From: a virus
IMG/VR virus record: IMGVR_UViG_3300033074_002003
Reading direction: 5' to 3' (one strand)
Length of the DNA: 64,000 nucleotides
Shown here: positions 36,805 through 59,817 of the stretch, piece by piece
Numbering within the stretch: position 1 is the stretch's first letter
Layout of the letters: each line of letters starts with the position of its first letter
Position numbers and translations under genes: made by a program
Notes under the pieces: generated by a model
Databases searched by the model: none
What the model saw: only the letters and a program-made list of their open reading frames with translations
What the model was told of the DNA's origin: nothing

Positions 36805-36821
36805 CCTATTTAGCTCTCGTG
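36805..36821 (+). promoter_or_regulatory. Late-type leaderless promoter CCTATTTAGCTCTC-GTG
   Basis: Matches the late motif. Confidence 0.45.
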
Positions 36822-41897: not shown

Positions 41898-41911
41898 GTG
41901 TCTAAATAGCG
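41898..41911 (-). promoter_or_regulatory. Late leaderless promoter CGCTATTTAGACAC-GTG
   Basis: Motif shared with 49576-49590, 53468-53483, 33331 and 36805. Confidence 0.55.
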
Positions 41912-41915
41912 ATCA

Positions 41916-44903
41916 TCAGCTCAATACGAATGGCGCGGCGAGCGACGTGCCGAGGCGGGCGTATAGAATCGGATTTCTGTTTGTTGACACTCCATCAACG
42001 AAAGGCAACGATGATGTCGCTTCCAGCGATAGGTTAGAACAGCTCGTTGATTCTGGATCTACTGACACTCCGTCGGTGCCGACGAATCTGGCAGACACGG
42101 GAGACGTCTGCCTGCCGATGATGCCGCCGAACGTACCGTCAGACTTGTACCCGACAGTATCGTAGAAAGAAGAATACGCGCGCTGCTCGAGCATATCACG
42201 CACGTGTCCAAATCGATCTCTTCTGAAAATGGCGCGTGAGTACTGCGGGACGCCGTTCAGAATACCGTATTTCCAGCCGCGAATTTCAACTCCGACAATA
42301 GCTGTCGCCGAACCACCGCCAGTGTATACAGTAGCAGACATTCTCTTTCTGAACCGCGGAAACGATGTACACCCGTAAGGAACATCGGGATAATCTGGAT
42401 CTGCAACGTGCGAATCATTCATCGTATTCTCGTCGCCGATACCAAAGAAAAATTTGTTGATGTCATTCTTGGATGCCGCAACGAGCTGCGTACCAGCGTA
42501 GACATTGCTATCACCAAACAGTGCGGGTGAACGGCCCGTCTCGAACAGTAGCGCGGCACCAATTGTTTCGGGACGAACTTCTACAATTGCAGCTGTCACC
42601 ATTTTGTTCGCGCCCTTGAAGCGTTTGACTTCTAGCTTCCTGTCGAGCGTAGAATATTGTGGAGCGAACGGGTATCCTTTGCTAAATTCATAGTCAGCAC
42701 GCAGTACACCTTTAGCGTCAACAGCAAGAGTGATTACGTCATCTCCGGGAATAGCAGCATTGGCAAACGAGTTCCAGCCCATCCACGCTCTGGCACCATC
42801 AGCGAGAGCAATTTCGTCAACGCCCGGAACCATCGAATCCCAGAACCTCTCGTTCGGTGACGAGGCTTGCGCAAATAGTTGCGTGCCCGCGACGATTTCA
42901 TACGGGTATTTGAGGCGGTCTGAGAGCATCTGCGAAGTTGCGATCGACGATGTGATGGATGATCTCGATCCAATCGCTCCGCGAGCACTTGAACCGTTGA
43001 CCAGCGCGGCGCTGCCCGTAACGTAGACATCTGTGTATGATCCACTGTATGTAGACCGCGCTTCAAGGTTCCACTGATCGACGACAGGTGATCCGACGAT
43101 TGTTGAGTAGTGAACTGCGTTGGATGTCACGTTCTGGTTCAGCGTATCGTGAAACTCTGCCTGCTCTCTCACCTGAGAGCCGAACAGTGTCATCTTGATC
43201 GTTCCTACTGGAATGGTAACGTCGTGCGACGCCGTGAGTGGGAACGAGTTGTAAGAAGCCGAAACTGTCTGCTCTTGCGGCGAAGAGTGATACTTTGACA
43301 CAACGAGGACGAGATTGTCTGTTGACGTCAAGAGATACGGCGAAATTACGTTTCCCTGAACGTTCTGAATCGCGAGATCGCTTAGACTTCCGGACGCTGT
43401 TCCGTATACATCGAGGCGCGCGCCCAACTCTTTGAGGCGTACAATTTTTGAGTTACCAGGAGATCCCACGTCACGACCAAATATCGATCTTCCTGAAACC
43501 TCACCTGACTTGCTTCTTCCGAAAGGAGAAACCGTGTAAACGTAACCCGCTGGTTCACTCTGAAATGGAGACAGTGGAGCTGTCGTCGTCGTATAAGACG
43601 CATAATCAGCGTACGTGCGGAAATAGGGCTTCATGTACACGAGGCCATTTGACACACGCGCTTCCATGTCAAATCTCAACGTACCAGCGAATTGGTGTGA
43701 GCTGCCTGAGGGAATTACTACAGTTGGTTTTGCGCCGAGAGCCGTAAATCCTTGAACTGAACGGTACTGCTTGTACCCGGGTGCTGGCGCGAATGGTGGT
43801 ACAGACGTCGAGCGAATGATTTCAGACGTATCATCTCCTTGCGGGATGATTGATGCTGACATGATTAGTTCTCGGCGCGTGGGCGAAATCTGATTGAACA
43901 GTGAAACCATGACACACGGTCCACCGAGACCCAAACAAGTTTCGTCATTCACACCGTGCGATTGCGCGACGCGTGTCCTATCATTGAACCAGTTACTGCC
44001 CGCCTGAAAAGGAAATTCAAGTGTCGCCCTTTCGAGAAGAAATGGCGTATCAGAAAAATCACCGACGTTAAATGACTGTGATGTCGACGCGGCGTATTTT
44101 GAATTTCGCGTGACGCCAGCATCATCATTTGATATTAGCGTTTCGACGCCCTCTTCCTGAAGTGCATTTGAGTAGAATGGCGCAAAACGAGCATATGATG
44201 CGAATGAGTATACGTCAGAGATGTATGACACCATCTTCCCGAACGCGCCCGAAGACGCGTAATTGCCGAGAGCGTCAAAAAACTTCACATCGAGGAATGG
44301 GTACGAAAATGCAAAACGTGATGGTGTCCCCTGAATGATCGGATTCGGATCTGTCTTCTCAGAGGGAGCGATTTCTTGGAACGTGCCTTCAACCTTGTTG
44401 TAGTAGTACGCGCTGGACGTAAGTGGATCTAGCGTCACGGCTGTCTTTACAGGAAGCTCAAATCGTATCTTTGTCTTCTCACCGAGCGGGGCTTTGAACC
44501 CAAGCCCTAGCTCACTGACGTTGCTGCCCGTTCGATACATGACACTCGACTTATCGAGGTCCTGTTCGTGCAGGCCCAATTCGATGAATGGTTTGTACGT
44601 GCTGAGTGTTCTAGTGACCGTGACGAAATTTTCTGCCACGCCTTGTGTGAATGAACCGACAGCAGAAATGCTACTCGTGAGGTCAGACGCGAGATTTCTG
44701 TTGTCTGTTGGCAGTGTTGTCGGGTACGAAACAGTTCTGCTTCGCGAGTAGATCAACGTGTCGTTGTCGTTGAACGGACCACCAGATGTACCGATGCGAG
44801 GATCGCCCGTCCTGCGTGTGTGTGGGTACCTCGACTCAGCGTTGTCGAGATTTCTCAGCGTTGTCCTGGGCAGAAGTCGTCTCATGTTAGAATTTGAACC
44901 CAC
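41916..44903 (-). CDS. Large virion structural protein (995 aa)
   Basis: Ser/Thr/Gly/Asn-rich beta protein in the late operon. No enzymatic motif seen. Confidence 0.5.
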   Translation of the reverse strand: MGSNSNMRRLLPRTTLRNLDNAESRYPHTRRTGDPRIGTSGGPFNDNDTLIYSRSRTVSYPTTLPTDNRNLASDLTSSISAVGSFTQGVAENFVTVTRTLSTYKPFIELGLHEQDLDKSSVMYRTGSNVSELGLGFKAPLGEKTKIRFELPVKTAVTLDPLTSSAYYYNKVEGTFQEIAPSEKTDPNPIIQGTPSRFAFSYPFLDVKFFDALGNYASSGAFGKMVSYISDVYSFASYARFAPFYSNALQEEGVETLISNDDAGVTRNSKYAASTSQSFNVGDFSDTPFLLERATLEFPFQAGSNWFNDRTRVAQSHGVNDETCLGLGGPCVMVSLFNQISPTRRELIMSASIIPQGDDTSEIIRSTSVPPFAPAPGYKQYRSVQGFTALGAKPTVVIPSGSSHQFAGTLRFDMEARVSNGLVYMKPYFRTYADYASYTTTTAPLSPFQSEPAGYVYTVSPFGRSKSGEVSGRSIFGRDVGSPGNSKIVRLKELGARLDVYGTASGSLSDLAIQNVQGNVISPYLLTSTDNLVLVVSKYHSSPQEQTVSASYNSFPLTASHDVTIPVGTIKMTLFGSQVREQAEFHDTLNQNVTSNAVHYSTIVGSPVVDQWNLEARSTYSGSYTDVYVTGSAALVNGSSARGAIGSRSSITSSIATSQMLSDRLKYPYEIVAGTQLFAQASSPNERFWDSMVPGVDEIALADGARAWMGWNSFANAAIPGDDVITLAVDAKGVLRADYEFSKGYPFAPQYSTLDRKLEVKRFKGANKMVTAAIVEVRPETIGAALLFETGRSPALFGDSNVYAGTQLVAASKNDINKFFFGIGDENTMNDSHVADPDYPDVPYGCTSFPRFRKRMSATVYTGGGSATAIVGVEIRGWKYGILNGVPQYSRAIFRRDRFGHVRDMLEQRAYSSFYDTVGYKSDGTFGGIIGRQTSPVSARFVGTDGVSVDPESTSCSNLSLEATSSLPFVDGVSTNRNPILYARLGTSLAAPFVLS

Positions 44904-45621
44904 CGAAAGCTAGCGAGTCTGTACCCTTTTGCGCTCCGTCGTAAGTAAACCCGACGCCCATCGATTTCGATCCGCTCAAGAGTCGAGTATTAGCATCAGT
45001 CCCACTCATCGCAAGTCGTGCTGATACGTGAAGTTGCGATGCACTAACTGGCAACACGAGCCCGATTTTATACGGAAATGCGTCGCTGTAAGGCGAAATC
45101 ACCGCAAATTTCGGAACACGACCGGTTCGATACGTTTCGCGCGTGATGAGCGCCCGGCTGTCGACAAATGGGCCCATTGTTCCCGTTCGTCCGGGCACGA
45201 ACTGGTCGGCAATGTCATCAACTTCGCCGAACTCATTTTCGTTGCCCGATTGAATCGCGCCTTTGATTCCCAGCACTTCTTTTGGGAAGAATTCGTTCGA
45301 TCCTGACGCAGAACCGAGAGGATGCAGCGCACCGTCGAAGTAACGTGCTACCCTATCACGGGTCATTCTCTCGAAGCACGCCCGGCCCTGACTTGTTTGT
45401 ATGAATTCGGACGACACGTAGCGCTGCTGTTCTTCAAATGGCGCGGGGTAATCAAACTGTCCAACTTGCCCGAACTCAACCTGTGGCAGTTTGTGATCGT
45501 CGTACCCAGACCAGATTTTTGCGACACCGGCCGCTACGTGCTCTGGTGCTGTTATTTCGACGCCCTGACGGTATCCGTCTACTTCACGTGTATCGATTGT
45601 GCCACTCGGGTGCGTTGCCAT
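44887..45621 (-). CDS. Structural protein (244 aa)
   Basis: Late operon. Confidence 0.5.
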   Translation of the reverse strand: MATHPSGTIDTREVDGYRQGVEITAPEHVAAGVAKIWSGYDDHKLPQVEFGQVGQFDYPAPFEEQQRYVSSEFIQTSQGRACFERMTRDRVARYFDGALHPLGSASGSNEFFPKEVLGIKGAIQSGNENEFGEVDDIADQFVPGRTGTMGPFVDSRALITRETYRTGRVPKFAVISPYSDAFPYKIGLVLPVSASQLHVSARLAMSGTDANTRLLSGSKSMGVGFTYDGAQKGTDSLAFGGFKF

Positions 45622-46098
45622 TTACACCCTCCTCTTGACGATATTTCGCTGTGCATCATTGAATGCGGGTGCTTTTCCGTAACTTCCCGGCGGCGCGATG
45701 AGACGCGTCGAAAGCGCGGTGGGTTGATCTCTGCTGGCAAGGCTTGCGTCGGTGACTTCGCCCGAAACAACGGCTATTGTGTACTGAACATCAGGTATGT
45801 CTGAGTATGCGGTGATGGCGTAGATGCCCGATTGCGTCGCTGTGAAGACTACTGATTTTTTTCCGACGCCCGTCCATGTCGCGACGACGGGTGTAGCTGG
45901 TGGTAGAGGCGGCGTGGGCCACGAAATTAGAACTGTCATCCCAGTCGTAGGGAAGTTCACAATGCAAGAATAGACGCCGCCAGCAACGTCAATGTTGCAA
46001 GAGTGAACTCTTTGGTAGCGTCCCTTTGATGCGCACGCGGCAGTAAGCGTTTCGGACGTTTCAACGCCAATAGTCGACGTTCCAGTACAACCTGCCAT
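45622..46098 (-). CDS. Structural protein (158 aa), Ig-like
   Basis: Late operon. Confidence 0.45.
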   Translation of the reverse strand: MAGCTGTSTIGVETSETLTAACASKGRYQRVHSCNIDVAGGVYSCIVNFPTTGMTVLISWPTPPLPPATPVVATWTGVGKKSVVFTATQSGIYAITAYSDIPDVQYTIAVVSGEVTDASLASRDQPTALSTRLIAPPGSYGKAPAFNDAQRNIVKRRV

Positions 46099-49000
46099 TA
46101 GAACTTCCTCATAGAACCGACGACCTGCTGTACCAAAATATCCCGTGGTGACAGAATTCTCGCGGTTTCACCGAGGTACGTGTCACCGTGGAAATACCTC
46201 TTCCTCGCCCTCTCCAACATGTGAGATTCTACTACGAAGTTCGTTCCGAAGAAGCGTGTCTTGCGTGGGATGAGCTGCTCGATGAAAGAGCTGATCGACG
46301 CATCAAACCACTTGAAGTACTCAAAGAACGCGCGCAGGTTTACTTTTCCCGTGAGGCGATTGAAGTAAATGTCCCTGATGTTTACGAGACCGGGATAATC
46401 GGAATCAAACATCAGCTGCGGATCTCCCAGAGAGTTGTCGAGATCGCTGAGCGTCGCAAAGATGTTCGTGATGTCGCGGTTGAGCGCATCGATGACTGAA
46501 AACTCGATAGTGAATCGCGTATCGTCAGTTGGTGTCTCGCTCGGTTCTGGGTCGTAGACAGGCGCGACACCCGCAACATCTGACTCGACGACGTTCTTAT
46601 ACGATAGGAAGCTGCGCGCTCGTACCTTGTCTGTTGTCGCCGCCTCGTCGATCGCCGGCGAGATCATAGAGTACGAGAACGTGTCAGAGAGAAGGTATTT
46701 TCTGTTCGCTGTGAGCCCACTGCCCGCGAGGTGAAATGCGTTCTGCGAGAAATCGAAGAGTTGCAGCGTCCCCTGCGAAGACGCGCTAAGCGTTGTTTGT
46801 TCGATCGAGATGTCTGTCCTCAGCCTCCCGAAAGTGCCTGTGGCGACTGTGTTGAAAGAGAACTGTGACCATGGCGATGACACACCGACAGAACGATAGT
46901 TTCGCGCGTGTTCGCGCCACTCGTCTTCTGTGAGCGCTCGCGACCAGAACTTGATCATGCTGAACTGACCTTCGAACGTCGACGCGCGGGCTTCTGCTAC
47001 TACGTTTGTCGAATCGTTCAAGAAGTCAAGCGACGCACCAGATGATACCGTTCGATTTCCGATGACAATGCAGCTGCCCGACGCATTTGTCGAGCCTGTA
47101 ATGAACTCAAACGCGGGTTTGATCGACGACGAGCCGCGATCGCTAAAGTAAGACGACGTCACGTAGCTCTCTACGATCTCAGAACCATCCTGTCTCGCGA
47201 GGCGAAGGAAGTAAGAAGACGATGCGTACGATCCGAACTCGTCGTTCCTGCTCCTGCCGAATGACACGCTCCACTTTTCGCCGTCAAATACGTTCGCGCC
47301 CGTAATCTGCATGACAAGTGTGGGAGCGATTGCACCCAGATTTTCTCTGCCTCTGACATACGCGCGAACGGCGGGAATGTCGGTGAACGTACTGCCCGAG
47401 GTCGCCACAATGTTTACCAACGTACCCCAGCCGTCAGACGTGCCCGTAAACGCCGATCCGGTAACAACCAGTCTTACGAGGCTCTGCGTAGAGACGGGAG
47501 TGATTCTCCTACCGATAGGGTACTTGTACGTGCCCTCGAAAGTAAAAGATCCAGACGTTAGCAGCGCATCGCTCGCGGAGTTAGAAATACCGTGCGGCGG
47601 GTACGTCTCTTTTCGCACCATCGTCCCAACGGGTAGCGGGAATCCGACCTCAGTTCTACTGCCCGATAGCGGTGGTGAGACAAAGTATCCCGACCTGTCA
47701 CTCATGTCAACGACATAGTGCTGCTGTGTGCGCCTCTCACGCACAGACGACAGTTGGCGCCGCGTCGGTCCACCGAACTCTCGAATCCTGATACTGTTGT
47801 CTGGGTCGATTCCGATTGCTCGTATGAAAGCCTTCACCGAGTGAATCGTTCCCTTTGACTTGATGACATCACTGAGATTTGTCAGGATTCGACGGTGAAT
47901 TTGGTTCTGCACGTACTGCAGGGCGTGCTGATTTGTGCCGAAGTCACCCTGAATGTTCTCGGCGTCAATGTACTGTTGGATCGACGCATCAGAGAAGAAC
48001 GACGGTACCTCGAATCCCATTTGTGAGAAGAGAAACGGGAGGAAGTTGTCGGGCGCCGTGTCAGGGTTGTTGTAATCGATGTTGTTCAGCGTCGCGAAGG
48101 CGTCTATGTAGAGCTTCATTTCGTCGAAAAACTTTGCCCAGACATACAGGAACGAAGATAGAAGCTGTGCAGCGCCGAGCTCGCCGGTACCAGGAGCGCC
48201 GGTTCCCGTGTACGAATCACCGATCGTTCCCTCTTCTGACTCCATGCCATCAAGCTCTTTCCCTTCCCTGAAATAATGCGAGGGAACGAGACGGGTAATG
48301 AGGTTTGGGTTGGTCCCGTCATATTCTGAGGCCGAAAGAAGTAGGTTTGTGTTTAGCGACAGGGTGTCAGTAAATGCTGGGAAGAGAACGGGCGAGAGCT
48401 CTACTTTTTCGTTCGTGATGGGTGGTGTCAGGCTTCCCGTAGAGCGATTTGCAAACGAAAAATTCGAGACGTACGCGTGAAGCTCATTACCAGAACTGTC
48501 AATGACAATTCCATTGTCTGCTGCTGTCGTCGAACCAAGTAGCGTACCAGAGGGTTCGTTGAACTTGTAGTACAGTTTCAGCGCGGGTGACGCAAAGACG
48601 CTCTTGGTTGCCGAAGCGCGCAGTGCTTCTTCGCTCCTCGCCTCGTGATAAAATCTGAACTCATCGATCGATCCGGAGAATGTCTGTCCTGGCGTGACAG
48701 TGATGCCGTTGAATCTCACGGCAGAGCCAGAACCGATTGTAAGTGCGGCGGCAGCAGAACCCAGATTTCCTAGAGCGTACGAGCTCGTCGATTCGGCCAC
48801 GAGTCGCGCGTCTACGAAGATCTGTGCTTTGTTCTTGCGCGGCGAACGATCGAAAGATACGCAGATGTGATTGAAACGTCCCTTTGTCAGTGGGAACGAC
48901 GTGAAAACACACTCGCTGCCAGACACTACGGCGAGCGTTCCGACACACTGTGTCGTAGAACCCGTCTGTTCGAGGTGGAAAGAGAAACCGTTCGTGCCGC

Positions 49001-49571
49001 CAGAGAGCTTCTGGAAAACGATTTGGTTTCCGTTTGTCTGTTGCGGGATGTAGACGTGTGACTCGAGGGAAAATGACCTGAGCCCAGGATCTAGGACGTT
49101 TGTTCCCAGCTTGTCCGTCGACAGGGTGGGAATGCCCGCGCCATTTAGGCCGCTGACAGAGATGAACGTGCCGACAGATCCGGTAGCCGCACTGCCACTG
49201 AAGTTGAGGTACCCGACGTTCTTTGGGAAGCGATCGTATACCCATTTTTCGAACCCGGTGAGGCTCTCGAAGAACTTCTCGAGGTCTCGCTTCGCACCGT
49301 CAAACGGAAAGTGATTGACGACCCTGTCAAAAGCAACGTTCGTGCTTACCTCAGCAGAGTTGAAGAAGACGTGATTCTGAAACTTTGACCAGTCTACATT
49401 TAGCTGCTGTGTTGACTTTAGCCCGCTTCCGGGAACGTCGTAGTAGAACGACGCGGTACTCTCGGAGTTCGTGTCAGACATCTCAGAAAGAGTCGCTCGC
49501 ACCTCTCTATTTCTTGAGAGAAGCGCTTTTACGAAGGAAGGTGATCCGAGCTGCCCGAGCGAAGATGCCAT
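46098..49571 (-). CDS. Very large baseplate/fibre-associated protein (1157 aa) with LamG-like region
   Basis: HVYIPQQTNGNQIVFQKLSGGTNGFSFHLEQ (LamG-like). ATG preceded by the late motif. Confidence 0.55.
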   Translation of the reverse strand: MASSLGQLGSPSFVKALLSRNREVRATLSEMSDTNSESTASFYYDVPGSGLKSTQQLNVDWSKFQNHVFFNSAEVSTNVAFDRVVNHFPFDGAKRDLEKFFESLTGFEKWVYDRFPKNVGYLNFSGSAATGSVGTFISVSGLNGAGIPTLSTDKLGTNVLDPGLRSFSLESHVYIPQQTNGNQIVFQKLSGGTNGFSFHLEQTGSTTQCVGTLAVVSGSECVFTSFPLTKGRFNHICVSFDRSPRKNKAQIFVDARLVAESTSSYALGNLGSAAAALTIGSGSAVRFNGITVTPGQTFSGSIDEFRFYHEARSEEALRASATKSVFASPALKLYYKFNEPSGTLLGSTTAADNGIVIDSSGNELHAYVSNFSFANRSTGSLTPPITNEKVELSPVLFPAFTDTLSLNTNLLLSASEYDGTNPNLITRLVPSHYFREGKELDGMESEEGTIGDSYTGTGAPGTGELGAAQLLSSFLYVWAKFFDEMKLYIDAFATLNNIDYNNPDTAPDNFLPFLFSQMGFEVPSFFSDASIQQYIDAENIQGDFGTNQHALQYVQNQIHRRILTNLSDVIKSKGTIHSVKAFIRAIGIDPDNSIRIREFGGPTRRQLSSVRERRTQQHYVVDMSDRSGYFVSPPLSGSRTEVGFPLPVGTMVRKETYPPHGISNSASDALLTSGSFTFEGTYKYPIGRRITPVSTQSLVRLVVTGSAFTGTSDGWGTLVNIVATSGSTFTDIPAVRAYVRGRENLGAIAPTLVMQITGANVFDGEKWSVSFGRSRNDEFGSYASSSYFLRLARQDGSEIVESYVTSSYFSDRGSSSIKPAFEFITGSTNASGSCIVIGNRTVSSGASLDFLNDSTNVVAEARASTFEGQFSMIKFWSRALTEDEWREHARNYRSVGVSSPWSQFSFNTVATGTFGRLRTDISIEQTTLSASSQGTLQLFDFSQNAFHLAGSGLTANRKYLLSDTFSYSMISPAIDEAATTDKVRARSFLSYKNVVESDVAGVAPVYDPEPSETPTDDTRFTIEFSVIDALNRDITNIFATLSDLDNSLGDPQLMFDSDYPGLVNIRDIYFNRLTGKVNLRAFFEYFKWFDASISSFIEQLIPRKTRFFGTNFVVESHMLERARKRYFHGDTYLGETARILSPRDILVQQVVGSMRKF

Positions 49572-49575
49572 TTCA

Positions 49576-49590
49576 GTGTCTTAAATAGAC
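49576..49590 (-). promoter_or_regulatory. Late leaderless promoter GTCTATTTAAGACAC-tgaa-ATG
   Basis: Late motif. Confidence 0.55.
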
Positions 49591-49614
49591 GTGCTGAAAT
49601 TATACTGCGCGCTC

Positions 49615-51135
49615 TCAACGAGGTTCGTTGACCCTGAAATTTCCGCCGACATTTCGGTGTATGACCCTTGAGTCGCCCTCTTTGATCATGACATCAACGG
49701 CGTAAGAACGACCCGCGACAAATGTATCCATGAACAGCTTGAACCTGAGACCCAGCGAGTCTGATGACATCTTCGTCGAGTTGCTCGATTCGTCAAATGG
49801 GATCACCACGTCATTCGTGACTGCGTCTCGAACGCTGTAGTGAACAGCCTCCGGTATGTAAGATTTTGCGAGCCGCGTGACTTTCGTACTTGTGTCAGCA
49901 ACACCGAGCTTGCGAACAAAGGCACGGAGATGTACAGCTTGATCAGTCGTATACTCTTCTTGCACGTTCGTAAGAGACACGACGTACTGGACTGGCATCA
50001 GACCGAACGTCTGCGCGTCCTGTGACTTTAGTGTGAGTGTCTGCGAAAGAAATGGAACTGTACCGTCTAGAGACGACCAGATTTCCGTGAACGTCACAGA
50101 CCCGCTGGTTGCGAGCTGCTCTCTGATCGCTGGGATCGACGTCGGCACAGCTACAGACGCGTAATACGTTCCGCTCGTGTACGGCGCAGATGTGTACTGT
50201 GATGCAGGGAACGTGAATGTGTAGATACCACCCGACACCGGTGTCTCGAGGCGAAGTGAGATGCAATTTGGTCCCGTAAGCGAAGACAGGGCCGCACCTG
50301 ACACGAGATTCTTCAGCCCGCCCGGGACGTGGTTGTAGAGAAACAGCGTGCCTGACACGTCGAGCGTCATGTTATTTCGATCGTCGCTCACCGCGTCGTT
50401 CCAACGGGCAATGAGTCGCGGGCGCTTCCAGGGATCGTTCGCAGATCGAGACCCGAATCTCTTGACAAACCTTGACTTTGTATCGTTCTCTTCTGCTGAC
50501 ACAAAAGAGATGCGGAAACCCTTGTCAGGGATCAACCCCGCAATCGTCGCGGATATCAGAGAGGTGATGTCTAGAAGCAGATCTTCTGTTCCGAGCGCAA
50601 AAGACTGCGACACGCCAAATTGTGTGATGCCGGCGCCGATGTTGCCGCTCGTAATGATGTCGATGTTCGATGAACCGAGAAGGCCCTGTCCGTTGGCACC
50701 CGAAGCAAACCACACGCTCACTCCGCCGCTCCATGACGCTGTCAAGAAATTAGCTGTGTCGCGGTCGCGATAGTATGCGACATCGCGGCCTGTACCCTCA
50801 TCAAATGAACGCGACAGTGGGTAGAGCACGAGCGAAAAGTTAGCGGGTGTTGTCTGCGAGCCGTAGACATCTGAGAGCTTCAACAGAACGCTGAACGTTG
50901 GGTCATTGACAGCGATCCCGGCAGATGACATCTGTGCTTGCAGGTCAGAGAGGTCAAATTTGATGAGGGCGCGCGACAACTCAACGTTCGGAACACTTCC
51001 GGACGACGTCACGCCGTAGAGCTTGAAGAGATCAAGCGTGCCAGCTCTTCCCAGATTTGCACCGGTGACGCGGCGACCGGAAATCACGCGATCCGTGATG
51101 TACGTGTCTTTTTCGGCAAACAGAATTCGGTACAT
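49615..51135 (-). CDS. Baseplate protein (506 aa)
   Basis: Translationally coupled (TAATG) to the upstream 616-aa gene. Confidence 0.5.
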   Translation of the reverse strand: MYRILFAEKDTYITDRVISGRRVTGANLGRAGTLDLFKLYGVTSSGSVPNVELSRALIKFDLSDLQAQMSSAGIAVNDPTFSVLLKLSDVYGSQTTPANFSLVLYPLSRSFDEGTGRDVAYYRDRDTANFLTASWSGGVSVWFASGANGQGLLGSSNIDIITSGNIGAGITQFGVSQSFALGTEDLLLDITSLISATIAGLIPDKGFRISFVSAEENDTKSRFVKRFGSRSANDPWKRPRLIARWNDAVSDDRNNMTLDVSGTLFLYNHVPGGLKNLVSGAALSSLTGPNCISLRLETPVSGGIYTFTFPASQYTSAPYTSGTYYASVAVPTSIPAIREQLATSGSVTFTEIWSSLDGTVPFLSQTLTLKSQDAQTFGLMPVQYVVSLTNVQEEYTTDQAVHLRAFVRKLGVADTSTKVTRLAKSYIPEAVHYSVRDAVTNDVVIPFDESSNSTKMSSDSLGLRFKLFMDTFVAGRSYAVDVMIKEGDSRVIHRNVGGNFRVNEPR

Positions 51136-52985
51136 TAGGTCGCGATCCCCACTAGATCTATGTCAGGAAACCTAACTTCAAACATGCCACCGGGCGGTGG
51201 GATAAGCATATCGTGCTTTGTGTTTGAGTCTACATCGAAAGAAAAATCGCTGTAAGTGTTCGAACCAACAACACCAGCAGCACTCACGAACTTAATCTGA
51301 TTCACAGATACGACGCCCGAAGTGTTGAAGATGATGTTGTGTACGTCAGAGAGCACGATCGGTTTGTCTATCGTGAAGTTCTTCACATCAAAGAAACGCT
51401 TCAGTTTCGTCAAGATTGACTGCAATACCAGGTTCTTGTTCATTCCTGGCTCTACTGTCACGCGAAATCTCAGCTGGAGATCGACGATCTTGCCGTCGTA
51501 GATGTCTATCGCATCGGAGATCATCCTGTACGTGTTCAAGTACGTTACGAGATTTTTCTTCAGCGTGTCTGGCGAGGTGATGAGGCGACCGTCCTCATCG
51601 CGACTGATTACATAGAGCTCAGTGACGAGCGGATTGCTCGAACTGGAACGGATACCCGCCCGGAAGACGCGCCCGAAGTTAGACGGTAGCGTGTAGATGC
51701 GCGCGAGAATGTCGGGCCGGGTTACGATCCTCGACTGTGCGCTACGTGCTGCTGGGATGAGGCGCTTCAACTCGTCTGTCGTCGGTGGATCTTCACCGCC
51801 TGACGCGCGAAACGGGTTTCTGACATCTACAGAGTTCCGTACGCGCGAGGCGAGGGCGGCCGAAGGTCCACCCGGGAATACCATTTTCACCGTCGGGATC
51901 GCATTGATCGTACCAGCTGCGACGTTGTGGCTGAGACCCCCGCCGTGTTGGTACGCGATTGTCAGCGTAGTATTCGTGCCAGCTACACCCAACGTCCTCG
52001 TGTTGAGAAGTGTGCCAGGATCGATAGACGTCCGCGTAAATGTCCTCTTGCCGTAGAGCGGTAGCGCAAAATCTGTGGGATCTGGGATGGCGTCATCTTC
52101 TAGCGTGTCTGCTGACCCACCACCGAAAACAAGCGTTGTTGTGCGGGACGACGTTGACGTTTTTCTGACGTATCTGTACGGAGCGGGTGTGAGCATCAGA
52201 ACGTCAGTGACCACATCGCCGTCGTCATTTACGTTTGGGACTCGTGAATAGACGACGTCCTGTGTGTGACGCTCGACCTCGTAGTACGTATTTCCGATGT
52301 CGTCGCTGACCTTCATGATCTCTGTCACGTTAGGATTGGACAGAGATACCTCACGGAACTGCACGAAATCGGAGCCGATCGCAAAGCTCTCCTGCGTTCG
52401 AAATCCAGACATGCACACGCCGACGGCAGTAACGACATATGTTGCTGGTGAACCGTCTGACAACACGTCTGCGAACCTGACAGTTGCCTTGAGATCACCG
52501 AGTTTGTTTCTCTCCGAGAAGTCAAGGTCGTCAAGAAGAACAAATTCTGTACCATTGTCAGCGATGCAGATCGTTCCCTCTTGCAAGACTGGTAGTGCGC
52601 TCGTTTGTACTCGCTTGCCACCAAAGCTGTCAGGTTCCGCTGGGACTTCGATGCTGAACTCGCAGAGGACAACTGCGGGTGACGCGCCCGTAATCTTTAC
52701 GTCTGCAGAGCGCAGGGCACGCTCGATGTTCTGATTTTCAACGGCGTCTTCTGAGCTCAGCTCTGAAAATTGGTGATCAAGGTAGAATGAGAGGTTGTCA
52801 CCGACGAATGCAGCAAAATCGATGAGGACACCGCCAAGACCTGATTCTGAAAAATCGCGGATCTTGTCGTCATAGTACGTCCGCGCGTACTCAACGATGT
52901 CCTGCCTGAGTCCCGCAAAGCTCTTGTTGAGGTAGCGTCGGGCCCTGACTGACTGGATTACGTCTTTCTTTGTGTCTACGGCCAT
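51135..52985 (-). CDS. Baseplate wedge protein, gp6/J-like candidate (616 aa)
   Basis: Size and position immediately downstream of the gp25-like gene. Confidence 0.45.
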   Translation of the reverse strand: MAVDTKKDVIQSVRARRYLNKSFAGLRQDIVEYARTYYDDKIRDFSESGLGGVLIDFAAFVGDNLSFYLDHQFSELSSEDAVENQNIERALRSADVKITGASPAVVLCEFSIEVPAEPDSFGGKRVQTSALPVLQEGTICIADNGTEFVLLDDLDFSERNKLGDLKATVRFADVLSDGSPATYVVTAVGVCMSGFRTQESFAIGSDFVQFREVSLSNPNVTEIMKVSDDIGNTYYEVERHTQDVVYSRVPNVNDDGDVVTDVLMLTPAPYRYVRKTSTSSRTTTLVFGGGSADTLEDDAIPDPTDFALPLYGKRTFTRTSIDPGTLLNTRTLGVAGTNTTLTIAYQHGGGLSHNVAAGTINAIPTVKMVFPGGPSAALASRVRNSVDVRNPFRASGGEDPPTTDELKRLIPAARSAQSRIVTRPDILARIYTLPSNFGRVFRAGIRSSSSNPLVTELYVISRDEDGRLITSPDTLKKNLVTYLNTYRMISDAIDIYDGKIVDLQLRFRVTVEPGMNKNLVLQSILTKLKRFFDVKNFTIDKPIVLSDVHNIIFNTSGVVSVNQIKFVSAAGVVGSNTYSDFSFDVDSNTKHDMLIPPPGGMFEVRFPDIDLVGIAT

Positions 52986-52986
52986 T

Positions 52987-53466
52987 TTATCCGATCGTGT
53001 ACAGCGTTACCAGGAGCTGACGTTCCTTGATGCTAAGTAGCGGGATGTTGTACGTTATGCGAATCTGCACGATCGCCGCGTTATTGGGATCGGTGAAATC
53101 TATGTTTGACACGTAGTCGACGGGCTGCACGTACGGCATCCACTTGTTGATCGCTCCCGCGATTCTTACGATCGCCTCCGAATCGAAATCCTCCTCAGAA
53201 GACAGTTCGGTGGTCAGTTCACGCAGGTTTGCGCCAAAATCGTACAACATGACGCGCTCACCCCAGTTCGTCAGGATCAGATTCCTGAGGTTGTCGTGAA
53301 GTTGGTCCGCGAGCGAGTAGTGCATTGCAAACACACCTTCAGAATTTCCGCCGAATCGGAGCGGTGTCATGAACCCAATGGGTGTCAGCGATCCGGACAC
53401 GGCAGAAGCGTCTTCTGCGCGCTTCTGAGACGTTTTGCCCACGCTCTTGAAGCTGATTGTTCCCAT
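52987..53466 (-). CDS. Baseplate wedge protein gp25/GPW-like
   Basis: LRNLILTNWGERVMLYDFGANLREL...AINKWMPY conserved core. Confidence 0.65.
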   Translation of the reverse strand: MGTISFKSVGKTSQKRAEDASAVSGSLTPIGFMTPLRFGGNSEGVFAMHYSLADQLHDNLRNLILTNWGERVMLYDFGANLRELTTELSSEEDFDSEAIVRIAGAINKWMPYVQPVDYVSNIDFTDPNNAAIVQIRITYNIPLLSIKERQLLVTLYTIG

Positions 53467-53467
53467 T

Positions 53468-53483
53468 GAGTCCTAAATAGGCG
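53468..53483 (-). promoter_or_regulatory. Late leaderless promoter GCCTATTTAGGACTCA-ATG
   Basis: Late motif. Confidence 0.55.
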
Positions 53484-53492
53484 CGACCGCAA

Positions 53493-54425
53493 TCACACGA
53501 GCCCGCAAAGCTTCGCCCCTGTCTTTGCGAAATTTCCCGAACCAACGAGCATCCCGATTATCACTGTCACGATCATCCCGACGACATTTTTCAGGTACAC
53601 GAGGAGGCACGCGATGAGAAGCTTCGGTGTTATGAGCAAGAGATTGAGTTCTGTCAGAATCCCGAGAAGTGATTCGAAACAGAGATCGAACACTTTCAAC
53701 GGAAGCTCGGGTAGTTTCAGCGCAAGATCTAGAGAGGGTGGAATGATGAGCTTCTTCAGGACAATGAATGGCAACTCGAGAAGTTTGGTTACGAATTCTG
53801 GTAGGATGAGCGTCGGCGGAGGCAGTGGAATTGTCGGGAGGTCGGGTGGAATTCCCGGGGGTGGGAAGGGAATTGCGAAGGGTGGGATGGGCGGTGGGAA
53901 CTTGATGCCCAACTTTGCCATCAACACCGGGATCGTAAGCTCAGGTATCGTTAGTTTCAACTCTCCGAGCTTCGGAATGAAATCGTCAGGAAATTTCGGT
54001 GGGAAAGGAAAATCGGGGCCGAACGCGAATGACATATCACACACGGGCGCAAAGGGTGTCGAGCCCGCGAGGTCAAGGGCGTTTGCTGTGCCCTCGAAGA
54101 GCGTGTCTAGGAAGATAGTGTGAAGTATGGGCGCGTTAGCTCGCGTTTTGATGTGTGCCGCTTGTTCTGCGGCGAATGGGTCAGCTCCGAACCAGAAAAT
54201 CTTCTCTTTCTGCAGAGTGGTAACATTGACAATTTCAGGTAGCGGATCTACGGGTGGGAGGGCAAATAGAGACGTGAGCCCGCCCTTCAGACCGTGACCG
54301 CCCTCGTTCCCGGCTACGAGAAGTGTCGTCACTTCTTCGAAGTACTTATCACGCGCCGCAGAGGTCAATTTCTTGGCGCTCAGGAGACCGACAGACGTGA
54401 GAATTGGATCGTAGAGTCCCATCAC
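53493..54425 (-). CDS. Pro-rich virion protein (310 aa) with hydrophobic C-terminus
   Basis: PPIPPFAIPFPPPGIPPDLPTIPLPPP. GTGA overlap with the upstream gene. Confidence 0.4.
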   Translation of the reverse strand: MMGLYDPILTSVGLLSAKKLTSAARDKYFEEVTTLLVAGNEGGHGLKGGLTSLFALPPVDPLPEIVNVTTLQKEKIFWFGADPFAAEQAAHIKTRANAPILHTIFLDTLFEGTANALDLAGSTPFAPVCDMSFAFGPDFPFPPKFPDDFIPKLGELKLTIPELTIPVLMAKLGIKFPPPIPPFAIPFPPPGIPPDLPTIPLPPPTLILPEFVTKLLELPFIVLKKLIIPPSLDLALKLPELPLKVFDLCFESLLGILTELNLLLITPKLLIACLLVYLKNVVGMIVTVIIGMLVGSGNFAKTGAKLCGLV

Positions 54426-55765
54426 TTCACCAAGACGCGCGTCGCGAATTTCCCGTTCAGTCCGTCAGCTCCGCCCTGCGAGCCGCCCATACTGTCAACG
54501 ATAGGACTTGCAGATACGCGACCTGATGCATTTACGACACCGGCGTGTGTCCCTAGAAGTGCCATGTCTGCATCGTCGCCACCGAGCTTTATCACACCCT
54601 TCTCTGAGGGAATGAAGACAATATCACCGCTCTTCTTTATGACGATCATCGCAGCGTCAGAATCAGGTGTCTCGGCTGTGGCTTTCACGAGAAGCTTGAT
54701 ATCTTCGCGCGCAATGATCCTCACCTGATCCGCTTTGACAACGGCCGCGGACGCTTGTGCAGAAGATGTGTCTTTGAGCTTCCCGTGCTTCACAGCAAAG
54801 TTTCGATCTGCTTTCGTTGACATAGAGAGCACGATCGTTGCGGCGTCATTGTCAAAATCAAAGTCGCCCTCACTACGCGATTCTTGCGTGCCAACAGTCT
54901 TGTCGATCTCGTCTTTTCCACGCGCGTTCTTGACCCTCTTACCAGAAGTCTTCGGCTTCCGTCCCCTACCGACACTCGCCGTGATTGTTCCGGACTTTGC
55001 AGTAACGTCTGCGGCAGGCAGCGAACCGTCCGGATTTGCCGCGAGAGAAGATCGATCTGTGCCCAAGACAAGCAATGCGTTATTTGCACCCTGAAGCGCG
55101 AGATCACCTGGTCGCTTTGTGAAGCGCGGGACATCTTCCATCTCGGTAGCTCGCGCGGCTTTCGACACAGAGACAATGTTCTTGTACGCGTCTGGGCCGC
55201 CCGGGATGCTGCCTGTGCCCTTCAACGTGACGTCTTCGCCGTCAAGCAGCCCGACTGCTCCGTTGTGAAATCCCGGAACGGGCGGGGGCGTACCGAGACC
55301 TTTGTCGGAAGTTTTCTTTGACGCGCGCCTATCAAACTTGCGGTCTGCGTGTGTGTAGTTGACATCATCGACGGAGCGCATCTCAGCAACGCGATCGATC
55401 CAGAACCCCTGTGCATCGACCATCGACGGGTCCTCAAACATAACCCAAACTTGCTCACCGGGACTTACGGGGAGGCACAGGTGCGGCGAGAAAAATGGAT
55501 AGAAGATCTCTGGGCCGTTTACTTCCGTTGCGCCGGTCCTTATTCTCTCGGCAATGACGGAATTTCGCGGCAGATTGCGGATGTTGTTTGTGAACCTAAC
55601 GCGCGAACGTATTGAGTCAATCTCTTCGTCAGTAAGCGAAACAGGATCGAAAATGACATCATGCACAACAGCTCTCTGATAGAGAGGTGCTGACCCCGCG
55701 GCACCGCCGCGACCATGTGGGCCAACAGAGCCGTCTGCAATAGATTTTGAACCGTTATTGTCCAT
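54422..55765 (-). CDS. Baseplate hub/central spike candidate (447 aa)
   Basis: OB-fold-like N-terminus (VSPGEQVWVMFEDPSMVDAQGFWIDRV). Start trimmed from ORF 54422..56020 to MDNNGSK, which overlaps the upstream stop (ATGA). Confidence 0.4.
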   Translation of the reverse strand: MDNNGSKSIADGSVGPHGRGGAAGSAPLYQRAVVHDVIFDPVSLTDEEIDSIRSRVRFTNNIRNLPRNSVIAERIRTGATEVNGPEIFYPFFSPHLCLPVSPGEQVWVMFEDPSMVDAQGFWIDRVAEMRSVDDVNYTHADRKFDRRASKKTSDKGLGTPPPVPGFHNGAVGLLDGEDVTLKGTGSIPGGPDAYKNIVSVSKAARATEMEDVPRFTKRPGDLALQGANNALLVLGTDRSSLAANPDGSLPAADVTAKSGTITASVGRGRKPKTSGKRVKNARGKDEIDKTVGTQESRSEGDFDFDNDAATIVLSMSTKADRNFAVKHGKLKDTSSAQASAAVVKADQVRIIAREDIKLLVKATAETPDSDAAMIVIKKSGDIVFIPSEKGVIKLGGDDADMALLGTHAGVVNASGRVSASPIVDSMGGSQGGADGLNGKFATRVLVK

Positions 55766-56118
55766 CACCTGAGAGCTTTTGCTTTTCCGAAAATCTCGTC
55801 TTGGTTCAAGTTCTCGCTCGCTCGCTGGGCCGCGGAGATCATCTCGGCGAGCTTCATCAGCTGGTCGGTGCTCCTGCTCATTCTTTCGATGTACTTTGCG
55901 AGCTGTGGTCCCTGGATTGCGTGCTGCGTCGGATCGCTCTGCACGAGATCGTGAAGCTCGGTGAAGAGCATGTGCGCGTTGATTCGATCCGTGATCGCGT
56001 TCTCGTAGATTTCCACCCACAGCGCGCGGACCTTGTCGTCGAGTGACTCGATATCCTCAAGAAGGCCGGAAAAGTCCTTGACGTGTTTCTCGATTGTTGT
56101 GGGATCTGTATTTGCCAT
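55765..56118 (-). CDS. Hypothetical protein (117 aa)
   Basis: Helical. Possible weak late motif CTATGTAATC upstream. Confidence 0.45.
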   Translation of the reverse strand: MANTDPTTIEKHVKDFSGLLEDIESLDDKVRALWVEIYENAITDRINAHMLFTELHDLVQSDPTQHAIQGPQLAKYIERMSRSTDQLMKLAEMISAAQRASENLNQDEIFGKAKALR

Positions 56119-56122
56119 GAGA

Positions 56123-56938
56123 TTACATAGTTTCGCTCTTGATTTTTCGATACTGCTTCTTGAGAGAGTGCAGCGTTGCTGTCAGTTGCTTCGGAGACAT
56201 GCCGGAGAGCTCGCGGATGTAGAGAAGAATCGCACTCTTGCTCAGCAAGTCAACGCTGTCAATGTTCTCAAAGATGGTCATGATCGAGTTCATGCAAGCG
56301 AGCTCGTTCTGCGTCTTCACAGAGTCACGGATCGTGTTCAACATGTCGGTGAGACCGTTCACGAAATTTGCCGATTCGATCATCGTCTCTTGCGAGGGGA
56401 CGACGTTTCGCTCCTCCATGATCTTCATCTCACGCGCTGACATTCCATCTATATCATCGAGACTGACATTTCTCTTGATACGCGTCGACTTCTGCTTCGT
56501 ACGGATGATGAGCCAATTTTTGGCGATGATGTTGAAGTACGAAAACGCGTTCGTGCCGCGACTGTTGTCAAACTTCCTGATCTGCTCAAAGAGAAACGTG
56601 ACACAGTCGTTCTTCAGATCGTCGTATGAATCATACAGGCCCGAGAACTTGTGAATGTTGATCAGATTCTCGACGAGTTTTTCGAACGCGGGAAAGATCT
56701 CTGTGACGTAAATCTGTTCCCTCTTCTTCTGTTCCGTCGCGTTCTGGTACTCGACGATCGCCGCCTGCGTCGCAGGTGTGAAGTAATACTTGCCGCCCGT
56801 ACCCTTCTTGCGACGCCTGATGATCCGCCTCTGCGGGGGCGCGGCAGGTGGAGATGATGTCTCACCCGCGTCTGTTGGCACCGCGACTGTCGTTGGTGCT
56901 GTAGGCTCAGCGATTTTCGTTTTCTTCTTCATTTTCAT
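56123..56938 (-). CDS. Phage sigma-70-like factor
   Basis: Region 2-like FEKLVENLINIHKFSGLYDSYDDLKNDCVTFLFEQIRKFDNSRGTNAFSYFNIIAKNW. Region 4-like C-terminal HTH. Start trimmed to MKMKKK. Confidence 0.55.
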   Translation of the reverse strand: MKMKKKTKIAEPTAPTTVAVPTDAGETSSPPAAPPQRRIIRRRKKGTGGKYYFTPATQAAIVEYQNATEQKKREQIYVTEIFPAFEKLVENLINIHKFSGLYDSYDDLKNDCVTFLFEQIRKFDNSRGTNAFSYFNIIAKNWLIIRTKQKSTRIKRNVSLDDIDGMSAREMKIMEERNVVPSQETMIESANFVNGLTDMLNTIRDSVKTQNELACMNSIMTIFENIDSVDLLSKSAILLYIRELSGMSPKQLTATLHSLKKQYRKIKSETM

Positions 56939-57217
56939 TCTCTTGCATCGTGACAAGCCGTGCAGCGGTAAGAACACTTCTCTGTGCCGCGCGAATTGTC
57001 GCCAGCACTCTCCTTGTGATTGGGTCATCCATGAGGACGGGCTTGCTCAGTGCGTCTTCGATGGCAAAATATGCGTCATTTAGGACATTTTGCGCGTCTT
57101 CGTAATTGTTCTCGAACCTCTCAACGAACTCGCTCTGCTTCAGATTTAGACGCACGCTCCACACTAGCGCTACTGACAGCGCAATTACAAGCAAAGAAAG
57201 TATGACGACTACGACAA

Positions 57218-58489
57218 TCACGGTGAGACGTACTTTCCGAGAGCATCGTCGTAGAGCGACGAGATCGCCTCAAAATTGTAGCGCTTTCGAATCTCTGCGC
57301 CGAGCTCTTTCGCCCACGAGGTCGGAACCTCGGGAGACGACCTGAACTTGAGAATCTTCTTCTTTGCGTCGTCAAGCTTCGGTTCCGCCCACCTCGAACC
57401 GCGTACGAAGATCGAGCCGTCTACTCTGCTACTCGGTACCTCTACGAGAGAGTACCCGATCTTGATGAACTTTCCGACGTCGAGGAAATCGCGGTGACCC
57501 GACCAGTCTGTCGCGATCACGGGAAGGCCAACAGCCGCTGCTTCTAGCAGAGGCAGTCCCCAACCCTCTCCTCGTGTGAGAGATACGAGCGCACGCGTAT
57601 TCGGGTGTGACATCAGCGTCTTCACACCGATATCAGTCGTGCTGCCGTGAAATACGTGGATGCGCGGTCGCCCGGGTTTGTTCTCGCCGAGAGCCTGTCT
57701 CAGCACTGACATCGTTACCTCCCTGTCGATCCGTGTGTTGCGCCCTGAGTTCGTCTTCAGGATGATTCCCACGTCACTGTCGCCCGCGAACGTCTCAGAG
57801 AGAAGCGATAGCGTATTGAACGTATTCTTGCGATCGCTCTTCGCGTCTCCCGTAAGCTGGCCAAAGACAAGGATGTTGAATGTTGTGTCGATGGCATTGA
57901 GCGCTGACTGTACGCGGGAATCGTGCGCGTAGCTCGAAAGCGCTAGAACGTCCGGAAATGACTCGGGAACGATGGACACCGGGACGCTGATCCTGCCCGC
58001 GGCCTCGAACGCGGCGAGGACATGCTTCGATGGGAACACGACGTGTGACATCCTGTTGCACGCAGCAACCCAGTCTGGGTGACAGCGATCTGACTCGACG
58101 CCCGCTGTCATTCCGATGTTCACGACACCCGGCTTTGGCTCCCACTCGTTCGGCAGCTTCAGCTGGATCGACACGTCGTGCTGTTCCGTCGGCGCGACAC
58201 TTCGCAGTTGAAGCGCGCCGATAAATCCGCCGTCGGCTTTCCCGTCGAGAATCCAGGGAGTGTTCCCCCACGGCACGGCGTGGATAAGCAGCTCGATCTG
58301 CCCCGCCTGGTGCTTCGCAAACAGCCAACGCGCCACCTGACGGGAGTGGACACCGTAGCCAGACTCGGTGAAAACTGGTGCTGACAACATGACACGCGGC
58401 TTCTTGCGCGAGGCACCAGAGATGAGGCGATTGAAATCTCCGATGCTCTTCTCGAGCTGCTCGGGGGTGAATGCGTCGAAACTCTTCAC
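57218..58489 (-). CDS. Glycosyltransferase, GT-B fold (GT4-like)
   Basis: EGWGLPLLEAAAVGLPVIATDWSGHRDF (E-x7-E donor-binding motif). Confidence 0.7.
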   Translation of the reverse strand: MKSFDAFTPEQLEKSIGDFNRLISGASRKKPRVMLSAPVFTESGYGVHSRQVARWLFAKHQAGQIELLIHAVPWGNTPWILDGKADGGFIGALQLRSVAPTEQHDVSIQLKLPNEWEPKPGVVNIGMTAGVESDRCHPDWVAACNRMSHVVFPSKHVLAAFEAAGRISVPVSIVPESFPDVLALSSYAHDSRVQSALNAIDTTFNILVFGQLTGDAKSDRKNTFNTLSLLSETFAGDSDVGIILKTNSGRNTRIDREVTMSVLRQALGENKPGRPRIHVFHGSTTDIGVKTLMSHPNTRALVSLTRGEGWGLPLLEAAAVGLPVIATDWSGHRDFLDVGKFIKIGYSLVEVPSSRVDGSIFVRGSRWAEPKLDDAKKKILKFRSSPEVPTSWAKELGAEIRKRYNFEAISSLYDDALGKYVSP

Positions 58490-59745: not shown

Positions 59746-59765
59746 TCCTCAGAACTATAGGACGA
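59746..59765 (-). promoter_or_regulatory. Early-type leaderless promoter CCTATAGTTCTGAGGA-ATG for the GT-GT-sigma operon
   Basis: TATAGT hexamer 8 nt before the ATG, the same geometry as the early cassettes. Confidence 0.45.
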
Positions 59766-59817
59766 CAAACGAGCAAGTATATGCGTCACGCGTCAAAAGT
59801 CAACGAGAAAATGCTTG

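Follow-up and report, generated by a model that had tools for sequence, protein, structure and literature searches.

We describe here a TA(T/C)TTA box that stands a few bases before a series of gene starts, and a phage sigma factor that probably reads it, in a 64-kb window (the whole stretch of 64,000 nucleotides (nt) analysed, IMG/VR virus record IMGVR_UViG_3300033074_002003) from the genome of an uncultured jumbo phage. We consider it probable, by analogy with phage T4, that a sigma factor of the gp55 type, encoded at 56123-56938, directs transcription from TA(T/C)TTA late promoters, which would yield leaderless or near-leaderless mRNAs, and that the operon of the sigma gene is transcribed from a host-type promoter. 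Judged by their sequence and placement, the boxes are most likely the late promoters of the phage. The window (G+C content 52-65%) is part of a genome of about 306 kb, of which about 240 kb lie outside it; a protein near the right end of the window is encoded on a 305,889-bp ENA contig, and the stretch L083, 99.7% identical to window positions 52101-64000, reaches approximately 8.7 kb past that end.

The box, the sigma factor and their conservation

The heptamer CTATTTA was found six times in the window, compared with 0.84 occurrences expected, and none of 100 shuffled sequences reached six. Five of the six copies are located 5, 6, 6, 7 and 10 nt upstream of a same-strand start codon; these are the five sites listed in the original prediction, before the starts at 33344, 36819, 41897, 49571 and 53466, and all of them were found in place (Table 1). 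The (A)GAC extension that had been assigned to the motif is not a conserved part of it, as CTATTTARGAC has only two matches in the window when one mismatch is tolerated, a number that is not significant. What is conserved is the core TA(T/C)TTA, usually with C in front, which has 15 copies in the window versus 6.9 expected. A count independent of gene models placed seven of these 15 copies 5-10 nt before the first ATG or GTG of an open reading frame (ORF) of at least 90 amino acids (aa), while 0.14 were expected. Two further sites at non-first starts bring the exact sites to nine, and CTATGTA, with one mismatch, is a tenth; all are on the strand of the gene, and in eight of the ten the start codon that follows is the first possible one of the ORF. 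The start at 11444 is less certain, with an in-frame ATG at 11408, and the box at 12184-12189 overlaps the stop codon of the upstream gene. When the ten sites were aligned, information was confined to the hexamer and the preceding base, and no conserved -35 partner was seen. The box is placed as the -10 element of a leaderless or near-leaderless mRNA would be and, as in T4 late promoters, lacks a conserved -35 element.

Among the genes behind a box, gp25 (PF04965) is clearly a structural gene, and the 871-aa and 1157-aa fibre-like proteins are likely ones; protein searches found no assignable function for six other box-bearing genes. A further TACTTA at 44942-44947 (minus strand) lies 38 nt before the GTG (44903) of a 995-aa gene, within the 3' end of the preceding gene, and could act as a late promoter that leaves a short leader.

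The 271-aa product of 56123-56938 is, by its predicted structure, a sigma factor. In the AlphaFold model (predicted local distance difference test score, pLDDT, 82) the top PDB match of the sigma-2 domain is T4 gp55, and the C-terminal domain matches sigma region 4 (of SigE, SigA and SigR), so that the region 2 and region 4 folds anticipated for this protein were both recovered. It also matches PHROG 234 ("late sigma transcription factor", T4 gp55 family) with an E-value of 2.2e-6. In other sequence searches, Pfam gave zero hits up to E 10, sigma-70 regions 2 and 4 included; a PDB sequence search gave no match; and alignment of the sigma family profile to the single gp55 sequence by hhalign gave E 0.2, which is marginal and unusable by itself. 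No second sigma-like ORF was found in the window, in agreement with the prediction that this one was the only one there, and neither gp33 nor gp45 was recognised among the window proteins scanned.

The sigma family comprises 1509 homologues, 55-75% identical, on contigs of up to approximately 370 kb, with 337 loci in IMG/VR, and is labelled hypothetical in all sources. A C-terminal tail of the pattern (I/V)(D/E)PKF(K/R)(L/F)(F/W), for example DPKFKLF or DPKFKFW, was present in 82 of 120 homologues (about 70%). In place of the hydrophobic tail, charged residues end the window sigma factor (...RKIKSETM) and the nine cluster representatives closest to it. From its sequence, the tail could be a sliding-clamp-binding element that was lost in one subclade. 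A search of IMG/VR for DNA encoding ...DPKFKLF-stop returned nine stretches only, namely sigma genes and three hits (on two contigs) to an unrelated family, and was uninformative.

Unannotated homologues with 30-32% identity were found in two cultured phages, Microcystis phage Mel-JY01 (PP395634.1, 158815-159453) and Flavobacterium phage immuto (MW353176.1, 78130-78828). For Microcystis phage Ma-LMM01, a transcriptome study reports the absence of a gp55 homologue (PMC5780444). Phage immuto keeps the order sigma-116aa-...-gp25-gp6 and has aCTATTTAttaatATG ahead of its baseplate module; its box is only suggestive, since TATTTA is common there (36 copies on the plus strand in 18.6 kb at 32.5% G+C).

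For comparison with relatives, 80 of the 337 IMG/VR loci around sigma homologues were fetched. The order GT1-GT2-sigma-p117-...-gp25-gp6-like, where GT1 and GT2 are glycosyltransferase genes and p117 encodes a 117-aa protein, is kept in 72-79 of the 80 loci; the synteny of GT1, GT2 and a small ORF ahead of sigma holds in 72-78, and that of sigma-p117-...-gp25 in 73-79. A short non-coding gap separates gp25 from the preceding stop codon, and in the majority of loci TAGTTA, TACTTA or TATTTA occurs in this gap, a few bases from the ATG. De novo motif search by expectation maximisation (EM) in 59 distinct gp25 upstream regions identified aTA[G/T/C]TTA, mostly 4-7 nt from the start. TAnTTA ending 4-12 nt before the start was found in 51% of gp25 regions, compared with 2% of the background and 2% of GT1 regions. 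The latter have TAnnnT in 61% of cases and, in 28 of 54, T(T/A)ACA-N16-18-TA(A/C)(T/G)AT at 6-11 nt before the start; this two-element promoter is absent from the gp25, p117, p506 and p1157 upstream sets. In a count of all 4096 hexamers at 4-8 nt before ORF starts in 77 loci, TAGTTA ranked first (20-fold enrichment), TACTTA was enriched 14-fold and TAATTA 10-fold, and the sigma-70-type TAATAT and Shine-Dalgarno-like words were enriched alongside. Altogether the boxes of the relatives are TAGTTA, TACTTA, TATTTA and TAATTA. Of the relatives fetched, L081 is the closest (sigma 75% identical); it has gtCTATTTAagggaacATG, which contains CTATTTA, before the orthologue of the 1157-aa gene, TAATTA before gp25 and CTATTTA in the sigma-p117 spacer.

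Two further TACTTA signals were treated separately. A stronger-looking EM motif (TACTTA) upstream of p616 lies within the conserved C-terminal coding sequence of gp25 and was not counted as independent. In the window, TACTTA at 53034-53039 (minus strand) falls in the last codons of gp25; it is conserved in relatives, 17 loci having it 9-13 nt upstream of the gp6-like gene, and could represent either a late promoter within gp25 or no more than conservation of the coding sequence.

Table 1. Positions of the putative promoter elements and of the genes discussed (window coordinates; distances run from the box to the start codon).
Feature	Position	Strand	Remarks
Candidate late-type box caTACTTAgtggg (TACTTA)	11433-11438	+	5 nt before ATG 11444, 248-aa protein
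Candidate late-type box caTACTTAgtgtg (TACTTA)	12184-12189	+	5 nt before ATG 12195, 608-aa GDSL esterase + Laminin_G_3 protein
Candidate late box CTATTTA	33331-33337	+	6 nt before ATG 33344, 93-aa protein
Candidate late box TATTTA	34984-34989	+	7 nt before ATG 34997, 124-aa protein
Candidate late box CTATTTA	36806-36812	+	6 nt before GTG 36819, 298-aa protein just upstream of Rnl1-like RNA ligase gene
871-aa tail-fibre-like protein	39282-41897	-	weak match to PHROG 972 (tail fibre)
Orphan CTATTTA	39358-39364	-	inside 3' end of 871-aa gene; followed by no start codon
Candidate late box CTATTTA	41903-41909	-	5 nt before GTG 41897, 871-aa tail-fibre-like protein
1157-aa Laminin_G_3 protein	46098-49571	-	Pfam
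Candidate late box CTATTTA	49582-49588	-	10 nt before ATG 49571, 1157-aa Laminin_G_3 protein
gp25-like baseplate wedge gene	52987-53466	-	PF04965
Candidate late box CTATTTA	53474-53480	-	7 nt before ATG 53466, gp25-like gene; position conserved in relatives
p117, conserved helical 117-aa protein	55765-56118	-	adjoins sigma in 79/80 loci
Predicted phage sigma factor, 271 aa	56123-56938	-	gp55-like sigma-2 domain at residues ~52-156; sigma-4-like C-terminal domain at ~183-270
One-mismatch box CTATGTA	56124-56130	-	5 nt before ATG 56118 (p117); overlaps sigma stop codon
Small ORF	56907-57164 (as called here)	-	overlaps sigma start; 104-aa product in the L083 annotation
GT2 glycosyltransferase	57218-58489	-	PF00534
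GT1 glycosyltransferase	58486-59745	-	PF00534
GT1 promoter region (putative)	59746-59803	-	TTGACT 59798-59803, 16 nt, TATACT 59776-59781, 16 nt, TATAGT 59754-59759, 8 nt, ATG 59745
Tandem TACTTA pair	60459-60479	-	proximal copy 5 nt before ATG 60453, 211-aa gene directly upstream of the glycosyltransferase-sigma operon

The sigma operon and the promoter classes

The sigma gene is the fourth of a packed series in the same orientation, after GT1, GT2 and the small ORF, which bears out its placement in an operon with two glycosyltransferases. No conserved promoter was found directly before the sigma gene in the relatives, which is consistent with co-transcription with the glycosyltransferase genes. 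The CCTATAGTTCTGAGGA-ATG from which the original prediction had deduced an early host-type promoter was found at 59745-59761, and the region yields two sigma-70-type hexamer pairs, TTGACT-N16-TATACT and TATACT-N16-TATAGT; this TTGACT/TATACT/TATAGT region corresponds to the TTACA-N16-TAATAT promoter of the relatives. The host-type part of the earlier description therefore holds, while the assignment to the early class does not, as shown by comparison with the early promoters of the window.

These form an array of about 30 tandem units at 1-10.8 kb (plus strand), with one more at 20032, and each unit consists of a promoter-like consensus followed by a small ORF of 60-160 aa. The consensus is CgCGTGaa, approximately 17 nt, GtGgTAgAGT, 6-7 nt and ATG (CgCGTGaa..GtGgTAgAGTCTaccC-ATG), often as ATGGAC. 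The array is apparently a dense set of leaderless early transcription units, and its approximately 30 promoters, with a -35-like element and a -10 element 6-7 nt before the ATG, share the geometry of the TA(T/C)TTA boxes. An analogous early-type array with a different repeat, TATATTTAGGTATCAATAATTAAAAC, lies ahead of the sigma gene of phage immuto. With a weight matrix of 43 columns derived from 28 early sites (training scores 4.4-43.3, median 31.6), matches above 12 bits were found only at 1-10.8 kb and at 20032. The GT1 promoter candidates scored -10.0 and -12.0 and do not belong to the early class, with which they have only the geometry in common (TATAGT 8 nt before the ATG). Therefore, there are at least three promoter classes, namely the early array, the sigma-70-consensus-like class including the sigma operon, and TA(T/C)TTA, and the two-tier cascade proposed originally is too simple; the three-class layout is closer to the early, middle and late classes of T4. 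Between 39 and 59 kb, a scan for consensus sigma-70 promoters gave fewer hits than in shuffled sequences, and a terminator scan gave hits not above those in shuffles.

Boxes of the late type flank the sigma operon, with the TACTTA pair before the 211-aa gene upstream and CTATGTA just after sigma, and so late read-through into the operon, or feedback on it, is possible.

The neighbour of sigma on the other side, p117, may be a partner of the sigma factor. Its invariant residues are W34, E36, Y38, E39, N40, D44 and R45, and it has an acidic-hydrophobic tail, IDPDDMFDKI in relatives and NQDEIFGKAKALR in the window. The structural model of p117 is a long helical bundle, for which a structure search gave unspecific helical-bundle matches only.

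Proposed mechanism and competing explanations

According to the mechanism that we propose, the host holoenzyme would transcribe the GT1-GT2-sigma operon from the sigma-70-type promoter, and the sigma factor would be made first. It would then bind the host core RNA polymerase via its gp55-like domain, while its own region-4-like domain would probably contact the beta-flap, and the resulting enzyme would open TA(T/C)TTA promoters that have no -35 element. With only 5-7 nt (in one case 10 nt) between the box and the start codon, the first transcribed base would be the A or G of this codon or one a few bases from it, and the baseplate, tail-fibre and other late genes, a set expressed after sigma, would have mRNAs with no leader or almost none. 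If CTATTTA is aligned on the last seven bases of the T4 late consensus TATAAATA (-12 to -6), a 5-nt gap would put +1 at the first base of the start codon; under this alignment, gaps of 5-7 nt would correspond to leaders of 0-2 nt and the 10-nt gap to a leader of 5 nt.

Several observations weigh against this mechanism. We infer the pairing of the sigma factor with the box from analogy and co-conservation, and the transcription start points and timing likewise from analogy. The sigma factor has a sigma-4-like domain though the box lacks a -35 element. One CTATTTA and five TACTTA copies in the window do not adjoin any start codon, and at four sites the box is directly followed by GGA or AGA, readable as a weak and very close Shine-Dalgarno sequence. 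Among the box-bearing genes, the "late" status is shown for gp25 alone and probable for the fibre-like proteins. In more distant relatives the orthologue of the 1157-aa gene has no TAnTTA at the corresponding distance, one subclade having GATACGTAG further upstream. Finally, the approximately 240 kb outside the window could encode another sigma factor or transcription factor.

The box might instead be a -10 element read by a primary or alternative sigma factor of the host, the phage sigma factor serving other promoters. TATTTA and TACTTA do share T1 and A2 with the sigma-70 -10 element and have the spacing to the start codon that is seen for the early -10 elements, and a consensus TATAAT is located 11 nt upstream of the CTATTTA at 49582. 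The box, however, always ends in A, whereas TAnnnT, the early -10 elements of the window and the GT1 -10 elements of the relatives end in T; moreover, it is accompanied by neither a -35 element nor an extended -10, and the two types of boxes separate cleanly by gene in about 60 relatives. We consider this explanation improbable.

An effect at the RNA level has a similarly low probability. Here the box would be a signal in a polycistronic mRNA, either an A/U-rich translation enhancer or a repressor operator such as that of T4 RegA, and not a promoter. It does occupy the place of the ribosome-binding region, GGA follows it directly at some sites, and most sites lie 0-50 nt after a same-strand upstream gene, making read-through transcripts plausible. 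Against such a signal, relatives have the box at distances of 4 to about 15 nt from the start, and one relative (L030) has a full AGGAG Shine-Dalgarno sequence between box and ATG, so that the box is there upstream of the ribosome site and not its replacement. At 11433 and 60459-60479, the box stands at the head of a transcription unit that follows a divergent or intergenic region, and Rfam gives no family match at the box sites. Furthermore, TAnnTA without a -35 element is the type of promoter read by gp55-like sigma factors, one of which is encoded by the phage.

A true late promoter could also be read by a different phage factor, a second sigma or a holoenzyme activator, encoded outside the window, which holds 64 kb of the approximately 306 kb; T4-like jumbo phages may have more than one type of sigma factor (PMC7824862). 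We regard this as quite improbable, given the absence of a second sigma-like ORF in the window, the closeness of the sigma factor to gp55, the sole sigma known for a -10-only TA-rich box, and its synteny, in almost every relative, with the baseplate module that carries the motif. The chance gathering of A+T-rich hexamers in the short intergenic gaps of a G+C-rich genome, conceivable for an element of only 6-7 nt in this window, is effectively excluded by the seven sites near first start codons, their constant orientation with the gene and the retention of their position in relatives over a wide range of base composition.

A broader version of the reading in which the phage sigma factor recognises TA(T/C)TTA is tentative and in our opinion rather unlikely: the whole clade (>1500 sigma homologues) might use a gp33-independent, sigma-4-bearing sigma factor of the gp55 lineage, with a subclade that has lost the clamp-tethering tail and whose late transcription is independent of clamp and replication and leaderless, and p117 might be a co-activator or an anti-sigma factor, produced from a late-type promoter as feedback.

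Gene content and comparison with known systems

The genes of the sigma and baseplate region are tightly packed on the minus strand from about 60.5 to 39.3 kb: the 211-aa gene, two GT4-type glycosyltransferases, the small ORF, the sigma-like gene, p117 and two genes with no function assigned; then gp25, a gp6-like wedge gene (PHROG 219), a 506-aa gene and the 1157-aa Laminin_G_3 protein; and finally 158-aa and 244-aa genes, the 995-aa protein and the 871-aa tail-fibre-like protein. Megablast with positions 41-58 kb gave zero DNA-level matches to GenBank phages.

Elsewhere in the window, an 850-aa protein encoded at 30729-33281 (plus strand) resembles the eukaryotic major vault protein (MVP_shoulder PF11978, 3e-27, plus Vault_3 and Band_7), which is unusual for a phage. 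The third-codon G+C of its gene is 0.90, compared with approximately 0.5-0.85 in most other genes, and the gene is followed by a G+C-rich hairpin and, directly 3' of it, by the box at 33331-33337. A cluster of RNA-repair and NAD-related genes occupies 25887-30620, 37663-39278, 60881-63873 and L083 1-8700. Its members in the window encode a metallophosphoesterase, an HNH endonuclease, a CCA-adding enzyme, SIR2, the Rnl1-like RNA ligase, a dCMP deaminase, a PD-(D/E)XK nuclease, and HD, tRNA-binding and PTH2-like proteins; just past the window, L083 adds NAMPT, NUDIX/NMNAT, a radical SAM protein and UDP-glucose dehydrogenase. The only Rfam match in the window is a single tRNA gene at 62038-62110 (minus strand; 46.7 bits), which ARAGORN reports as "tRNA-???" with a two-base anticodon, "ta".

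The results name a conserved "hypothetical" protein family (>1500 proteins, 337 IMG/VR loci) and give it a testable target sequence. TAnTTA a few bases before the start codon is a rule by which genes of these uncultured jumbo phages could be assigned to temporal classes by their sequence alone. The combination known from gp55, a minimal sigma factor that reads a -10-only late promoter, would exist also in a form that has a region-4-like domain and either has or lacks a possible clamp tail, and this variant bears on the origin of the clamp-coupled mechanism of T4. The data also point to a lineage of phages that, irrespective of base composition, have leaderless first genes as a rule in at least two promoter classes. 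As phage immuto is a cultured relative that keeps the gene order, a test system exists and experiments are possible.

Among known systems, late transcription of T4 is the nearest. Late mRNAs of T4 have leaders with Shine-Dalgarno sites, whereas the box of the window abuts the start codon, which predicts leaderless mRNAs. In both phages the sigma factor is highly diverged and phage-encoded, its gene is, or in the window phage would be, expressed from a host-type promoter before the virion genes, and the sigma-2 domain of the window protein is structurally closest to gp55. T4 late promoters consist of a -10-like element, with the -35 not conserved, and are read by gp55 (PMC7892883); the box of the window is likewise short, TA-rich and -10-like. 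The likeness to the T4 late box noted originally holds to this extent, and for four positions, as CTATTTA, in the alignment given above, shares T-11, A-10, T-7 and A-6 with TATAAATA (-13 to -6). The T4 consensus as such is not present, the window having (C)TA(T/C)TTA; the C of the window box has a counterpart in phage Aeh1, whose late promoter has C at -12 in place of TA (PMC2988020). Gp55 reads the non-template strand, inserting A-12, A-9 and A-8 into pockets (PMC7892883, PMC2988020), whereas the window has TT or CT at -9/-8, where T4 has the AA held in these pockets (PMC7892883). In T4, the position of region 4 on the beta-flap is occupied by gp33, and both gp55 and gp33 have C-terminal tails to which the clamp gp45 binds (PMC7892883, PMC2988020). 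The window has no recognised gp33 homologue, and its 271-aa sigma factor departs from the minimal gp55 architecture by a sigma-4-like domain that gp55 lacks; the clamp-type hydrophobic tail occurs in about 70% of the family and not in this member, and sequence similarity to gp55 is marginal.

Promoters of the extracytoplasmic function (ECF) sigma factors depend on a conserved -35 element, which the box lacks. The window sigma factor resembles this group (group 4/ECF) in its predicted composition of a sigma-2 domain and a helix-turn-helix like region 4 of SigE, SigA and SigR, and differs also in the lack of a Pfam hit to sigma-70 regions 2 and 4. The sigma factors of Bacillus phage SPO1 (gp28, then gp33/34) read two-element promoters and are not known for a gp55-like fold preference, and leaderless geometry is not a known feature of SPO1. 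The scheme proposed for the window phage is nevertheless the same relay as in SPO1 and similar phage sigma cascades: as described in PMC13401047, the host holoenzyme transcribes a phage sigma gene, the product of which redirects the core polymerase to a later class.

The leaderless geometry itself, with a -10 element about 6-7 nt before ATG or GTG and the transcript starting at the start codon, has a parallel in Actinobacteria and Deinococcus-Thermus; leaderless transcripts are common in mycobacteria (PMC4633059). There the host primary sigma factor and TAnnnT are involved, whereas here a phage sigma factor and TAnTTA are proposed, and the habit is kept across a phage clade spanning A+T-rich to G+C-rich genomes.

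In summary, the kind of system is already known, since sigma factors encoded by jumbo phages without their own polymerase are a known group (PMC7824862) and PHROGs would label the protein a late sigma factor. What is new is the different box, its placement at the start codon, the joining of gp55-like and region-4-like domains, the loss of the tail in a subclade, the invariably adjacent 117-aa protein, a candidate partner, and the size of the unannotated clade.

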